Below are positions 5,053 through 61,482 of a stretch of 64,000 nucleotides of DNA, piece after piece (position 1 is the first letter of the stretch; each line of letters begins with the position of its first letter). The notes beneath the pieces are model-generated. The model ran no database searches, had not been told where the DNA came from, and worked only from the letters and a program-made list of their open reading frames with translations. The stretch is from Zootoca vivipara (taxonomy: Eukaryota), in NCBI RefSeq assembly GCF_963506605.1, contig NC_083286.1:51894001-51958000 (forward strand), given 5' to 3'. The translations under genes and the position numbers were made by a program.

Positions 5053-5445
5053 GCATAAGAACACAAAAAGAAAGTGGCCAGCATCCTGTTCTCACAGTGG
5101 CCAACCAGGTGCTTGTAAGAAGTCCTTTTCTTTCCTGCAGTTTCCAACAATTGGTTTTCAGAGAAGCATGCTGCCTCTGGCAGGGGAGGTAGAACATACC
5201 CAACAGTAGCCACTGATTAGTCTTAAATCCATAGCCTTTAAATCTTTTAAAGACATCCAAGTCAGTGGCCGTAACTGCATAGCTGCCAAGTTATCCCTTT
5301 TTTTAAGGGAAATTCCCTTATGCTGAATAGGCTTCCTCGTGAGAAAAGGGAAAACTTGGCAGCTATGCATAACTGCCTCTTGTAGGGATGAATTCCATAA
5401 ATTTGTACTGTGTGAAGAAGCACTTTCCTTTGTCTGTCCTGAATT
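5053..5445 (-). mobile_element. CR1 LINE 3' fragment, interrupted by a 90-bp hAT MITE
   Basis: CATAAGAAC...GCATCCTGTTCTCACAGTGGCCAACCAG...GAATTCCATAA..TGTGTGAAGAAG, typical of a reverse CR1 3' end. Confidence 0.65.
5278..5367. mobile_element. 90-bp hAT MITE (CATAGCTGCCAAGT TIR family)
   Basis: TIRs CATAGCTGCCAAGTT/AACTTGGCAGCTATG. 8-bp TSD CGTAACTG/CATAACTG (one CpG-type change). Confidence 0.9.
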
Positions 5446-40291: not shown

Positions 40292-40381
40292 CATAGCTGC
40301 CAAGTTTTCCCTTTTCTCGCGAGGAAGCCTATTCAGCATAAGGGAAAATCCCTTTAAAAAAGGGATAACTTGGCAGCTATG
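40292..40381. mobile_element. 90-bp hAT MITE in the candidate DCC 3'UTR
   Basis: TIRs CATAGCTGCCAAGTT/AACTTGGCAGCTATG, perfect TSD GTGCTTCC. Near-identical to 5278-5367 in opposite orientation. Confidence 0.93.
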
Positions 40382-41881: not shown

Positions 41882-42055
<174 letters not shown>

Positions 42056-45681: not shown

Positions 45682-45830
45682 AATGGGACAGTTATTTTCA
45701 GTGCCAGACTTACTTCTCCAGTAATACCTGCCTTTGGCAGTCCCATCAATCCAATTGGTACGAGACTGGATCTACAAAACATTTCAGCTAGTGCTTCTGG
45801 ACTACAAGAGAACTATGGACTTATGCTTAC

Positions 45831-45973
45831 ATTTGCAGGATCCTCTGTTTGTTTGTGCCCCTCTTCTGAGGCTTCTGGGGCTGTCGGCACTGAGACGGGA
45901 AGCAGAGGGGATCTTGCTTTGCCAGCTAGTCCAAGTGATGCTGTCTTAACCTGAGCCTTGGGAAGGTTGGGTG
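45831..45973 (-). CDS. DCC: DCC penultimate coding exon (equivalent to human exon 28)
   Basis: Translates (A)[47 protein letters not shown]. Acceptor TTTATATTGCAG|, donor AAT|GTAAGC. 143 nt, phase 1-0. Not called in the ORF track because there is no start codon in this frame. Confidence 0.97.
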
Positions 45974-47340
45974 CTGCAATATAAATGGAGAAGGTAGGAC
46001 CATATTAGCACATGAATCATGCACTGAAGAAAGCAGAAGCAACATGAGAATACACATTAAATCAGCCATATTTTGCCCAGGCCCTTCCTTACATTTATAA
46101 TCTGTTATCACCTAAAATGTGTAGCACACATTTTTTTAAAAAAGAATGAAACCACAACAGCATATTGAATCTAAACAGCACAAGATCCAAATAGGAATCT
46201 TAAAATAAAACCCAGTTAGATTAATCCTACAGTCTTAAGCATACTTACATGGAAGTAAGTTCCACAGAAATGAATCACAACCATTTCCAAGTCAATTAGA
46301 GGTGATATCTAGGTAATAAACACTTTTAAATTTTTCTTGGATTTCGATGGGCTACCCAACTTCATGCTCAAGCCTTTCCCACTGGCAATCAATGAGTGCA
46401 AAACATTAAATCCCCCCCAGTCAAGGGATGGATGAATCTCAGTTTTGGGAAGGTTTTTGGTGGTGGAGAAATATATCAGAGCTCTTGGCAGAACATCAAA
46501 GCATATTCAGGCCTAGAAAAGAATAGGCATGTGCAATATTGACCTGAGGGACTGGCAGGCAGAAGGAAGGATTTGGTGGCCATCTCAAGTATGTATACTA
46601 AGAGTGGTTGACCTTGAGTAAAGAGAGGCAGAGAGGGCTAAGAATCTGTAACAGAGACTTCTCTGCACCCTCACAGAACCACAACTACACTAAGGAGAAT
46701 CGATCACAGTTAAGTTGGCATAAAAAGGCTGCATTTGTAGCTGGACTGAGCAGAGCCAAAATGCCAAAAATGAGAGGAAATTTTTGCAGAGTGGGAACAA
46801 TCCCGGACAATCGCAGGGATGATTATCTGCTATGGCTTTCTTTCTCTGCAGCTCTGAAAGTGGCTACTCTTTCTCTCCTTACACAGCGAGAGATAATTTC
46901 TTGGTCAGTTGGCAGGTCAATTGGTTGCAACTACCACTGTTCTCCTCCCAGAAGGTGCCGGGATGGGGCAAATATTTATTGGATTTGTTTAAAATAACTT
47001 ATACACCAGTAAATATAACAAAATCTTGAAGCAGCTCACATCAACCATGAAACCACAAGCAAAAAGTAAATACATGATTTTAAAAAGTTAATCGAAGCAT
47101 TAAAACAGAAACACTGAGCAGTGTGACCAGAGGCAGGGAAAGTCAACGGAAACTAGTATGTTTTCAGGAGCTGCTTAAATCTGGCCACAGCAGGTGCATG
47201 AGGAAGGGCAGGCCAGAGGGCTAGTGTGACTACAGACAAGTAGCTTTGTCTCAATGCAAGAAGCAGTGCCACTTCTTGGACCTTGCGAGAGAAAAATAAT
47301 GCTGATTTTCTGAAGTTTTCTCTACTCCATTGTGTTTGGG

Positions 47341-50939: not shown

Positions 50940-51383
50940 CATACCTGCCAAGTCTCTCGCAGATAAATCCGGGATCGGCAGCCGCGCAACACCGGAAGTT
51001 GTGTAGACGCAACTCCCGGTGTCGCTTTGCCCATCTATGGGCACCAGAAAATGGCCGACGCCGGCACCGGAAGTCGTGTCTACGCATGTCCGGAAGTGCG
51101 TAGATGCAACTTACGGCGTCGCTTTGCCCATCTATGGGCACCGAAAATGGCCGGCGCCGGAAGTCGCGTCTACGCATGTCCGGAAGTGCGTAGATGCACT
51201 TCCGGTACCAGCGCTGGCCATTTTCAGTGCCCATAGATGGGCAAAGCGACACCAGAAAAATGGCCGCCGACAGGAGCCAAAATAAGGGAGATTAATGGGA
51301 GAGTAGCTCAAACGGGAGACCAGCGGAAAAGGGTAAGAAAAAACAGGGGTTTCCCAGGAAATACGGGGTACTTGGCAGCTAGG
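50940..51383. mobile_element. 444-bp CpG-rich hAT MITE (CATAGCTGCCAAGT TIR family)
   Basis: TIRs CATACCTGCCAAGT/ACTTGGCAGCTAGG, TSD GCCCCTCC/GCCCCTCT, internal ~90-bp direct and inverted repeats. Confidence 0.9.
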
Positions 51384-58482: not shown

Positions 58483-58713
58483 TAGTGGTACCTCGGGTTA
58501 AGAAATTATTTCGTTCCGGAGATCTGTTCTTAACCTGAAACTGTTCTTAACCTGAGGTACCACTTTAGCTAATGGGGCCTCCTGCTGCTGCTGCGCGATT
58601 TCTGTTCTCATCCCGAAGCAAAGTTCTTAACCCAAGGTACTATTTCTGGGTTAGCGGAGTCTGTAACCTGAAGCATCTGTAACCTGAAGCATCTGTAACC
58701 CGAGGTACCACTG
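58483..58713. mobile_element. Tigger-type MITE
   Basis: TA-(T)AGTGGTACCTCGGGTTA...TAACCCGAGGTACCACTG-TA. Confidence 0.88.
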
Positions 58714-59595
58714 TATAGTGCATCTAACATTAAGTTGTGAGCTTCTGGGGGGCAGTTCTGAAAGTTTTCTAAAAATACAATTGGTGATCTGTTTCTGAAT
58801 TGAACTCAGAGCAATATTCCCATTGCTAGCATCAACCCGTATCTATCAATTTTCTCCTGTTACAACGCACTAATGAATTTGGACAGAGCCCAGGAATTGG
58901 CTGTCTAAGCATGAATTTTCAAGGGAGAGAGGCACACACAAACACCTGGGGACTGTACTTCTTAACTTTTCTACTGTGATTTCAGGATTTGGAAAAATCA
59001 ACAAAAGACTTAAGTAAAGCAGCCCAGTAAGGAAGACAGTGACACAAATTGCTGCATACAGGATCCTTTGTGTAGAAACCTATGGCATTATGATAGCTAC
59101 ACCTTCTGACAAAGACTGTAGACAAAGGGCTTGCTTAATTAATTTCTATTTAAACCAAATGCCATATCCTTCCTTGAGACAGCTGCAATCTTGCCAGAGC
59201 TGTTGCTTTATGCTTTATTACCCTGTATTGAGAGTCAGTTTTGCTCTGATTTGAATATGCCACTTCAAACCTTCGTATTTAAATTGGGCTCTCCCATTGT
59301 CTGGAGTATTGCTTATAGATGAGGAATAAGAAAAGAAAAGAAAAGAGAAAGAAAAGAAAAGAAAAACAGCCTGTGCGCTTTCAGCCCTTAATAGTAGCAT
59401 GAATACCAAAATAGAGATATGAACCCAACTCACCCCTCTACCCTGGACACAAAGTCAGTGGGGTGACTATTTCACATGTGATGCTATTGCTGGCAATGCC
59501 ACTAGGCTCAGTCTCAGCTGGGCAGGGATGAGACTATTTCCTCTCCCAATGCAAACCCCCTATTCAAATGTGAATTTTGCCCCAGCTTTTAGTGG

Positions 59596-61192
59596 AATCA
59601 TAGAATCATAGAATTGGAAGAGACCACAAGGGCCATCCAGTCCAACCCCCTGCCAAGCAGGAAACACCATCAAAGCCATAGCTGCCAAGTATCCCGTATC
59701 TGCCAGGAAAACCCCTTTTTTCTTACCGTTTCCCGGCGGTCTCCCGTTTGGTGGAAAATCCCAGTATTGTCCCTTAAATTGGCTTCTGCCCAGCTGCCAT
59801 TTTTCTGGTGCCGCTTTGCCCTTCTATGGGCACCAGAAAATGGCGGCGCCGGAAGTCGCTTCCGCGCATGACCGGAAGTTGCGTGACGCGACTTCCGGTG
59901 GCGCTTTGCCCTTCTATGGGCATCAGAAAATGGCGGCGCCGGTGCCGGAAGTCGCTTTTACGTGTTTCCGGTCATGCGCGGAAGCGACTTCCGGAGCCGG
60001 CGCCGCCATTTTCTGATGCCCATAGAAGGGCGGAGCGCCACCGGAAGTTGCGTCACGCAACTTCCGGTCATGCGCGCGCTGCCGATCCCGGATCTTTACG
60101 ACCTGGACTTGGCAGCTATGATCAAAGCATTCCTGACAGATGGCTGTCAAGCCTCCGCTTAAAGACCTCCAAAGAAGGAGACTCCACCACACTCCTTGGT
60201 AGCAAATTCCACTGCCGAACAGCTCTTACTGTCAGGAAGTTCTTCCTAATGTTTAGGTGGAATCTTCTTTCTTGTAGTTTGATTCCATTCCTCCGTGTCC
60301 GCTTCTCTGGAGCAGCAGAAAACAACCTTTCTCCCTCCTCTATATGGCATCTTTTAATATATTTGAACATGGCTATCATATCACCCCTTAACCTTCTCTT
60401 CTCCAGGCTAAACATACACAGCTCCCTAAGCCGTTCCTCATAAGGCATTGTTTCCAGGCCTTTGACCATTTTGGTTGCCCTCCTCTGGGCACGTTCCAGC
60501 TTGTCAGTATCCTTCTTGAACTGTGGTGCCCAGAACTGGACACAGTACTCCAGGTGAGGTCTGACCAGAGCAGAATACAGTGGTACTATTACTTCCCTTG
60601 ATCTAGATGCTATACTCCTATTGATGCAGCCCAGAATTGCATTGGCTTTTTTAGCTGCTGCACCACACTGTTGACTCATGTCAGGTTTGTGGTCTACCAA
60701 GACTCCTAGATCCTTTTCACATGTACTGTTCTCAAGCCAGGTGTCACCCATCTTGTATTTGTGCCTTTCATTTTTTTTTTGTTGCCCAAGTGTAGTACTT
60801 TACATTTCTCCCTGTTAAAATTCATCCTGTTTGCTCTGGCCCAGTTCTCTAATCTATTAAGGTCATTTTGAAGTGTGATCCTGTCCTCTGGGGTATTAGC
60901 CACCCCTCCCAATTTGGTATCATCTGCAAACTTGATCAGGATGCCCTCAAGCCCATCATCCAAGTCATTTATAAAGATGTTGAATAAGACTGGGCCCAAG
61001 ACAGAACCCTGTGGCACCCCACTAGTCACTTCTCTCCAGGATGAGGAGGAGCCATTGATGAGCACCCTTTGGGTTCAGTCAGTCAGCCAGTTACAAATCC
61101 ACTGAATGGTAGCATTGTCTAGCCCGCATTTTACTAGCTTCTTTACAAGAATATCATGGGGCACCTTGTCAAAGGCCTTGCTGAATTCAAGA
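59596..61192 (-). mobile_element. Young 5'-truncated CR1 LINE (RT domain through 3' tail)
   Basis: [58 protein letters not shown]. One frameshift at the poly-T 60771-60780. (ATTCTATG)n tail at 59596-59614. Confidence 0.96.
59677..60120. mobile_element. 444-bp CpG-rich hAT MITE nested in the CR1 3' end
   Basis: Perfect 14-bp TIRs CATAGCTGCCAAGT/ACTTGGCAGCTATG. Perfect TSD ATCAAAGC (59669-59676, 60121-60128). Confidence 0.95.
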
Positions 61193-61482
61193 TATCAAGT
61201 GGAACTTCACTTTGAATCCAAGAACAAAGCCACACACCCCCCCAAAAAAACCCTGAGAGACCATGGCTTGGTCTAAGTGCTTGGAGATAACAGTGTGTGC
61301 TTTATATGCATACATGAGAAGTTGGGTGCCCCTTTTCTCAATTAAAAGAGTCCTGGTAATTAGGACCCTGAAGATCCTTGCTTGACAGCTTGGAATGTTG
61401 TTTCTAGTCAGCAAGAGATTATTGGGCTACGTTGAACACTGATATGATCCAGGGCTGTCACAGGCATTCAGGACTCTTGTAA

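Follow-up and report, generated by a model that had tools for sequence, protein, structure and literature searches.

The 444-bp element at the centre of this analysis, inserted in a DCC intron within the window (the whole 64,000-nucleotide stretch of Zootoca vivipara DNA), is a young non-autonomous hAT MITE. Promoter-type motifs have multiplied within its family, whose copies are most likely methylated passengers. The transposase would bind the TIRs together with (A/T)TCCC words lying within ~115 bases of the 5' end and ~45 bases of the 3' end, and the MITE would move by cut-and-paste. An ancestor may have taken up a short CpG-rich ETS palindrome, whose origin was not found and which is common to at least one MITE with other ends; fold-back errors would then multiply the palindrome unit and homogenise its arms. 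Germline methylation after insertion would restrict the binding of GABPA, NRF1 and partly YY1, and the consensuses would stay CpG-rich mainly because their sources change by fast repair or recombination and not during long residence in methylated DNA. Throughout, the motif labels ETS, YY1, NRF1, CRE and BANP and the repeat labels CR1-like, pogo-like and SINE stand for what we take these sequences to be.

The element, its ends and its transposase-bearing relative

The features of the window that bear on this reading are as follows (coordinates, strand, description).

59597..61200, no strand assigned: host repeat split by the MITE, a young LINE-like (putatively CR1-like) element present in many copies; on the right, 61200 marks how far the repeat was followed
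59669..59676, plus: left TSD ATCAAAGC
59677..60120, plus: non-autonomous hAT MITE of 444 bp, belonging to the young subfamily c0, whose consensus has 450 bp and 53 CpG
59677..59690, plus: left TIR CATAGCTGCCAAGT, 14 nt
59691..59791, plus: 5' subterminal region derived from the full-length hAT 5' end, with (A/T)TCCC words and without an ETS or YY1 motif
59792..60076, no strand assigned: acquired core, a ~96-bp unit three times over, with 7 ETS, 3 YY1 and 2 half-CRE matches
59863..60076, no strand assigned: long fold-back whose 95-nt arms are 95% complementary and enclose a 24-nt loop
60077..60106, plus: 3' subterminal region (GCTG..GATCCC), derived by alignment from the full-length hAT 3' end
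60107..60120, minus: right TIR, equal to the 3' TIR of the transposase-bearing copy L137
60121..60128, plus: right TSD ATCAAAGC
50940..51383, minus: second core-bearing MITE, older sister subfamily c16, 6 intact ETS sites, TSD GCCCCTCC/GCCCCTCT
45828..45974, minus: DCC coding exon, Neogenin_C positions 221-268
41882..41980, minus: last DCC coding exon, with a match (E 4e-14) to PDB chains labelled 'Netrin receptor DCC'
40292..40381, no strand assigned: 90-bp coreless MITE, TIR as in the 444-bp MITE, TSD GTGCTTCC
5278..5367, no strand assigned: 90-bp coreless MITE, TIR as in the 444-bp MITE

A first-pass annotation had described a 444-bp element with perfect TIRs and TSD, and both were found again: the TIRs are 14 nt long and 100% complementary and the TSD is 8 bp, in keeping with the short TIR and 8-bp TSD of hAT elements. 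Reads that derive from further copies of the host repeat show a skip of exactly 452 bases, equal to the MITE plus one TSD, with 8 letters fitting on either side; read contigs from 4 runs end at the host repeat, and the skips could stem from any of its copies. These copies are 92-97% identical elsewhere, and read depth is very high from 59571 onward. An AAGAA microsatellite and a 16-bp tandem repeat to the left of the host repeat (59328-59365; 58660-58700) are ordinary. The placement in a DCC intron was likewise borne out, since minus-strand Neogenin_C exons lie on both sides of the MITE and the last exon corresponds to DCC PDB chains; the MITE sits ~18 kb upstream of the last coding exon, near the 3' end of the gene.

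Genome-wide counts refer to the 1.44 Gb genome, in which the TIR pattern of the superfamily has 61,566 exact matches (0 for the backwards control) and the first 39 bases of the c0 subfamily were found 657 times with at most 2 mismatches. The best 40 scoring copies, the window MITE among them, are all full length and at least 94% identical. Most copies are 444-450 bp, and the family is short, non-coding, TIR-bounded and present in high copy number, as MITEs are; an exact 8-bp TSD flanks 26 of the 30 nearest copies, and the remaining four have 6-7-bp duplications. Private non-CpG divergence in c0 is ~0.6%, which places it among the youngest forms sampled and, together with the ends shared with a transposase-bearing hAT element, upholds the annotation of a young hAT-type MITE. 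Six of 30 copies (L104, L116, L118, L123, L124, L126) are chimeric: a TIR also occurs internally, at base 123, and leads into a short spacer of foreign sequence and then a normal core; each of the six lies within a single outer TSD, and these elements were themselves mobile.

The core-bearing forms are a minority of the superfamily. Sixty evenly spaced 10-kb stretches (600 kb) contained 21 superfamily elements, 16 of them the 90-bp coreless form and five core-bearing. Four of these five belong to c4, a subfamily with only 2 ETS sites, which has lost most of its ETS sites and yet is the commonest core-bearing type. The core is thus dispensable, being missing from the full-length element as well as from the 16 coreless elements. 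The older subfamily c3, with 1,456 exact 3' ends genome-wide, is crowded toward both ends of contig C1, and its flanks have a CpG o/e of 0.41 against 0.30 for the young subfamily, which may reflect either a preference at insertion or slower decay close to the ends of chromosomes.

A candidate source of transposase was found in a 3,484-bp hAT element with TIRs and TSD (L135:2354-5837; contig C3, 44.88 Mb), and another copy of this partner, L137, terminates in the exact TIR of the window MITE. The partner gene has several exons, the first of which encodes a sequence identical to a protein listed at NCBI for the lacertid Zootoca vivipara, and it encodes a hAT dimerisation domain (PF05699, E 6.5e-13), with a C2H2-like zinc-finger stretch recognised by eye at the N-terminus. 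When full-length copies (L134, L135, L137, L141) were aligned with seven MITE types, the outermost parts of the MITE (~115 bases on the 5' side, ~45 on the 3' side) aligned with the partner ends via intermediate MITE types, so that the MITE and a transposase-coding element have their ends in common. Of the hAT families represented by 30 PF05699 loci and 13 PF14291 loci, this is the only one whose ends match. The partner copies found are 88-97% alike and broken in this assembly, and none of them was intact and as young as the MITE.

All 29 homologues found for the partner come from lacertids or teleosts (P0001, P0003, P0008; ~80% amino acid identity to Nothobranchius), and the Lacerta homologue P0003 is 80% identical to a killifish protein over 661 residues. 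This likeness suggests horizontal transfer between fish and lizards, which is a candidate source of some 30,000 or more MITEs. In three database gene models (P0004, P0011, P0014) a KRAB domain (PF01352) is joined to the partner transposase, and these models lie in a cluster of copies at contig C2:2.2-6.8 Mb (L134, L136, L141, L142). KRAB-transposase fusions have been described (bioRxiv 10.1101/2020.05.07.082677), and it is possible that such a fusion could repress the MITE family through its ends.

Structure and origin of the core

The core is built from a ~96-bp unit comprising a GCCC-TTCTAT-GGGC hairpin, AAAATGGCGGC, CCGGAAGT, GCGCATG and the palindrome ACCGGAAGTTGCGT.ACGC.ACTTCCGGT. Two direct copies and one inverted copy of this unit form a 50-nt direct repeat and 95-nt inverted arms, and the core folds as single-strand DNA at -180.7 kcal/mol (z -23 against 100 shuffles). 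Seven ETS sites (CCGGAAGT/ACTTCCGG) start at 59849, 59872, 59891, 59945, 59987, 60041 and 60060; the three YY1 sites (AAAATGGCGGC) lie at 59837, 59927 and, in reverse, 60002; and GTGACG occurs at 59883 and in reverse at 60051. The ETS and YY1 sites are positioned as first annotated. The matches of this motif array are real, but the ten ETS and YY1 motifs are not independent: they arise from one repeated unit and amount to about two origins. Sister subfamilies carry other arrangements of the unit, some having lost ETS sites or being without a YY1 site. In 20,000 dinucleotide shuffles of the 96-bp unit, ETS occurred in 51, YY1 in 40 and both in none, and any two of 10 motifs that we take to be promoter motifs occurred in 58. 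The presence of ETS and YY1 in one unit is beyond chance for a single sequence, with the family having been picked post hoc from many.

The CpG-island sequence criteria are a GC content above 0.5, a CpG o/e above 0.6 and a length above 200 bp. With a GC content of 0.586, 44 CpG, a CpG o/e of 1.16 (0.32 for the window) and a length of 444 bp, the MITE exceeds all three values, and the designation 'CpG-island-like' holds as far as sequence goes, though germline hypomethylation fails the mutational proxy described below. The CpGs had also been called almost undecayed. This state reflects youth: the window MITE differs from its subfamily consensus at 12 positions, 6 of which are CpG transitions.

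The core was not found in the full-length hAT element, and no host source of it was found; derivation from the transposon's own promoter was ruled out, as full-length copies contain no match. A 31-letter stretch with ETS and GCATGCGCAG recurs, with 29 letters equal, in a MITE with other ends, and the core may for this reason have moved between families. Template switching can extend and homogenise inverted repeats (PMC13100816), and template switching during repair likely built the duplicated and inverted core. At the junction of end and core, the alignment suggests that a YY1-type site arose in steps, starting at GGCTCCTCAG (full-length element), passing GGCTCCATTTT and ending at CGGCCATTTT; this apparent order comes from the alignment and not from a rooted tree. 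The best YY1 match belongs to the youngest subfamily.

CpG decay and the readings weighed

Methylation-resistant copies are expected to lose CpGs no faster than other G/C sites. In a sample of 56 copies (the 30 nearest and 26 in chromosome order), CpG transitions per site exceeded those at other G/C sites 5.0-fold with a symmetric filter, 6.4-fold by parsimony and 11-fold on terminal branches, compared with 7.1-10-fold in a host LINE control on 13-24 events; ratios of 13.7-18.5-fold were discounted as products of an asymmetric filter. None of the 56 copies was without a CpG transition, a sample size at which a small unmethylated subset would escape. The motif CpGs did not behave differently: over five pooled subfamilies, 100 ETS CpGs had decayed against 114 expected from other core CpGs, and 68 YY1 CpGs against 63 expected. 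In c3, whose consensus has 5 ETS sites, 1-6 remained intact per copy (29 copies read of 30 fetched). ETS CpGs of c13 had decayed less (3 against 10.5 expected, p 0.008), in one of many tests and on a sample picked by likeness to an intact copy, and the filtered CpG ratio of c16 was only 1.9. The copies do not lie in CpG-rich flanks, where CpG o/e was 0.30-0.32 against 0.33 in a genome sample. The 90-bp MITE carries TCTCGCGAGG in its subterminal region, matching 9 of 10 letters of what we take to be the BANP motif, and its two CpGs decay fast (13 of 156 sites).

Inserted copies are thus likely methylated in the germline, a statement based on a mutational proxy that reports on the germline alone. 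The lack of germline methylation expected of a CpG island is not what this proxy, which is not a methylome, indicates (5-11-fold against 7-10-fold in the LINE). The first-pass annotation had suggested a methylation-resistant module and had named motif loss at the neutral CpG rate among the outcomes that would refute it. Since decay is CpG-biased in the copies, motif CpGs included, and the LINE control is similar, that outcome is what the proxy gives, and the suggestion is not sustained.

Changes inherited from source copies follow a different pattern. Internal branches carry 5 CpG losses and 67 other changes, against 233 and 120 on terminal branches, and neither simulation nor a tree built from all columns removed the contrast as a tree artefact. 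The inherited CpG fraction is 0.08-0.20, whereas simulation with one methylated process gave 0.58-0.72 and reached the observed fraction in 0 of 40 runs; simulated sources at the unmethylated rate fit it. Subfamily consensuses are 14-20% apart, with few CpG transitions between them (5 of 28, 5 of 25, 11 of 62 and 5 of 31), and four of the five hold a CpG o/e of 1.13-1.28. Among inherited changes, 26 of 53 fall in positions 74-112, a ~40-base spacer, and others at the paired arm positions 230-237 and 362-364. The six copies with chimeric 5' ends were excluded from the simulation, control-family, pooled motif and word-conservation analyses; the c3 alignment used 24 of 30 copies, after exclusion of five under 380 bp and one without a 5' TIR. 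The CpG-poor inheritance fits unmethylated sources as well as repair-born mutation, and repair-born mutation is the best explanation: the clustering in the spacer, the paired arm positions and the six chimeric copies are in line with sources that change fast by repair, arm conversion and recombination.

The alternative that survives best, which we nonetheless consider unlikely, is that selection at the transposon level acts on the ETS/YY1/NRF1-type core: host factors bound to it in germ cells or early embryos would keep a few sources unmethylated, open and more mobile, with most daughter copies methylated afterwards. Besides the CpG-poor inherited changes and the consensuses that remain CpG-rich despite their divergence, the apparent stepwise gain of the YY1-type site and its best match in the youngest subfamily are in line with this, as is the gain of GABPA, NRF1 and YY1 binding, partly on transposons, reported for mouse ES cells losing methylation (PMC7605266). 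Inherited non-CpG changes are also fewer than expected in the motifs (ETS 10 against 20.7, YY1 8 against 15.7; deficit 0.5-0.8), and in 12 copies of c3 ETS sites carry 1/265 non-CpG changes against 130/3094. Yet repeated words that are not motifs show an equal deficit, with hairpin words ranking alongside ETS and YY1, and motif-specific selection was set aside because motif sites are consensus-defined and non-motif repeated 8-mers do equally well. A pogo-like MITE with one ETS site shows a similar contrast of private and inherited CpG fractions (0.50 against 0.14-0.25, on few events); c13, a SINE and the LINE show either no such contrast or an ambiguous one. A fourth control family was dropped, having 2 copies only. 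The prevalence of the coreless form and the position of c4 as the commonest core type despite its ETS loss also argue against selection on the motifs.

Recurrence of the motifs in other elements was examined on a wider scale. CCGGAAGT occurs 92,472 times in the genome, twice as often as its CpG-free backwards control. By eye, ~20 of its 31 occurrences in the 600 kb lie inside pogo-like MITEs, which together with the ETS+GCATGCGCAG module in a MITE with other ends again accords with transposon-level selection. Counted by distinct contexts in the 600 kb, CCGGAAGT ranks merely 328 among 11,745 CpG 8-mers and YY1 words are unenriched (ranks 5,600 and 11,242), which counts against it; NRF1-like words rank 2, 10 and 18, and other CG-rich words rank likewise. 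A direct test of genome-wide convergence on promoter motifs was accordingly mixed, with ETS modest and YY1 unenriched. The top CpG 8-mer of this sample is TACCGGTA (18 distinct contexts against 1.2 expected), followed by TACCGTA/TACGGTA, and its enrichment perhaps represents footprints from the excision of TA-targeting elements. ETS and NRF1-like words occur in MITEs with at least four other end types. Some of these other-ended MITEs (CAGGGGTCCCC, CAGTGGTCGGCAACC, TAGGGTTACC and pogo-like CAGTGGTACCTC; drawn from L224, L229, L231, L241, L242 and L252-L311) bear CCGGAAGT near GCGCATGCGC or CGCCATTTT. It is conceivable, if rather improbable, that lizard MITEs of several unrelated superfamilies evolve and swap arrays of CpG-island factor sites (ETS, NRF1, YY1) because such arrays hold rare germline sources unmethylated and open, a selfish mimicry of CpG islands that would serve transposition and not host genes and would have spread ETS sites, silenced by methylation, across the genome by the tens of thousands.

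The annotation had named transposase-binding subterminal repeats as a simpler alternative, and it is very doubtful that the motifs are such repeats resembling host sites, or extra low-affinity transposase sites. hAT transposases do bind short end-proximal repeats, with Hermes recognising short repeated words near its ends (PMC10368747) and Ac recognising AAACGG and related words (PMC3260210), and TTCCGG resembles the end word TTCCCG. The motifs, by comparison, are interior, beginning 160 bases in, and neither CCGGAAGT nor TTCCGG occurs in the 3,484-bp full-length element or in the 90-bp MITE. Each 5' end holds 3-4 copies of the word (A/T)TCCC, each 3' end holds one and the 90-bp MITE four; the 290-bp core has none. 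As this word is common to all ends and the ETS word is missing there, the subterminal-repeat reading of the motifs is not supported, and by analogy with Hermes and Ac (A/T)TCCC rather than the ETS site is the likely site of the transposase, putatively through a BED finger.

Least probable of all is that the family equips its host with portable promoters or enhancers that resist methylation, and that the window copy regulates DCC: perfect consensus sites for GABPA and YY1-type factors of bidirectional promoters, a CpG-island-like sequence, the doubled frequency of CCGGAAGT and the in vivo binding of transcription factor sites in plant MITEs (PMC5950925) speak for it, but the copies decay at the methylated rate even at motif CpGs with 0 of 56 protected, the flanks are not rich in CpG, the very young window copy lies inside another repeat near the DCC 3' end with half of its differences being CpG transitions, and sequence-based CpG-island calls generally mispredict unmethylated DNA in lizard (PMC3583005). 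Single co-opted copies elsewhere are possible.

Relation to known systems

Multiplication of promoter-type motifs by a young MITE, most likely as methylated passengers, has several partial counterparts. In GC, CpG o/e and motif content the element resembles CpG islands and bidirectional promoters (PMC3583005, PMC4763482), and GABPA, NRF-1 and YY1 have been linked to human bidirectional promoters (PMC4763482, citing Lin 2007); it differs from them in that the lack of methylation that defines CpG islands fails the mutational test in MITE copies. Young mouse L1 and ERV promoters with YY1/GABPA sites (PMC7605266, PMC11602158) are likewise cases of housekeeping-factor sites in a transposon under methylation restriction, and work in mouse cells shows NRF1 to be restricted by methylation, and GABPA and YY1 by methylation combined with deacetylation (PMC7605266, PMC9729108). 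Those elements require transcription in order to move, whereas a DNA MITE does not, and a promoter role is therefore not required.

Closer to the hAT superfamily, the partner has in common with Hermes and other hAT transposases (PMC10368747) a dimerisation domain, an N-terminal C2H2-like finger and short words concentrated at the ends, although the match of the Lacerta homologue P0003 to Hermes is weak (E 3e-5 over ~75 aa). Maize Ds1, Ds2 and Ds-l4 similarly combine an 8-bp TSD, a short TIR and the ends of an autonomous hAT element with an unrelated filler interior, Ds1 being ~400 bp with a common filler (PMC3260210). Unlike in maize Ds, the lizard filler is a self-duplicated palindromic CpG-rich unit and copy number reaches tens of thousands.

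The literature covered, which took in few subscription papers, gave no account of this MITE family and none of vertebrate MITEs with ETS/YY1/NRF1 arrays. The family offers a clear vertebrate case of a MITE multiplying host-factor motifs. It also cautions that, in lizards, young transposons make up most of what motif scans and CpG-island calls pick up: the two long MITEs of the window (c0 and c16) hold 13 of its 14 perfect ETS sites, and this hAT MITE superfamily alone holds 15 of the first 30 on contig C1. The 90-bp coreless form, the several core-bearing forms that share its ends and a transposase closely related to fish proteins make up a matched set for testing how non-coding DNA transposons remain rich in CpG within a methylated genome. 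Should the motifs indeed protect sources, silent DNA elements that code for nothing would have a new way of escaping methylation.

The closest precedent is provided by plant MITEs that amplified E2F sites. Transcription factor motifs amplified by MITEs have been described for E2F in Brassica (Henaff 2014, cited in PMC5950925), for bZIP60/PIF3 in Prunus and for TCP15/23 in tomato (PMC5950925), and in these plants, as in the lizard, a short non-coding TIR element multiplied a host factor site to high copy number. The lizard element differs from the plant MITEs in being a vertebrate hAT element, known here from sequence alone, that carries several CpG-island-type motifs within a fold-back unit and whose copies appear to be methylated.
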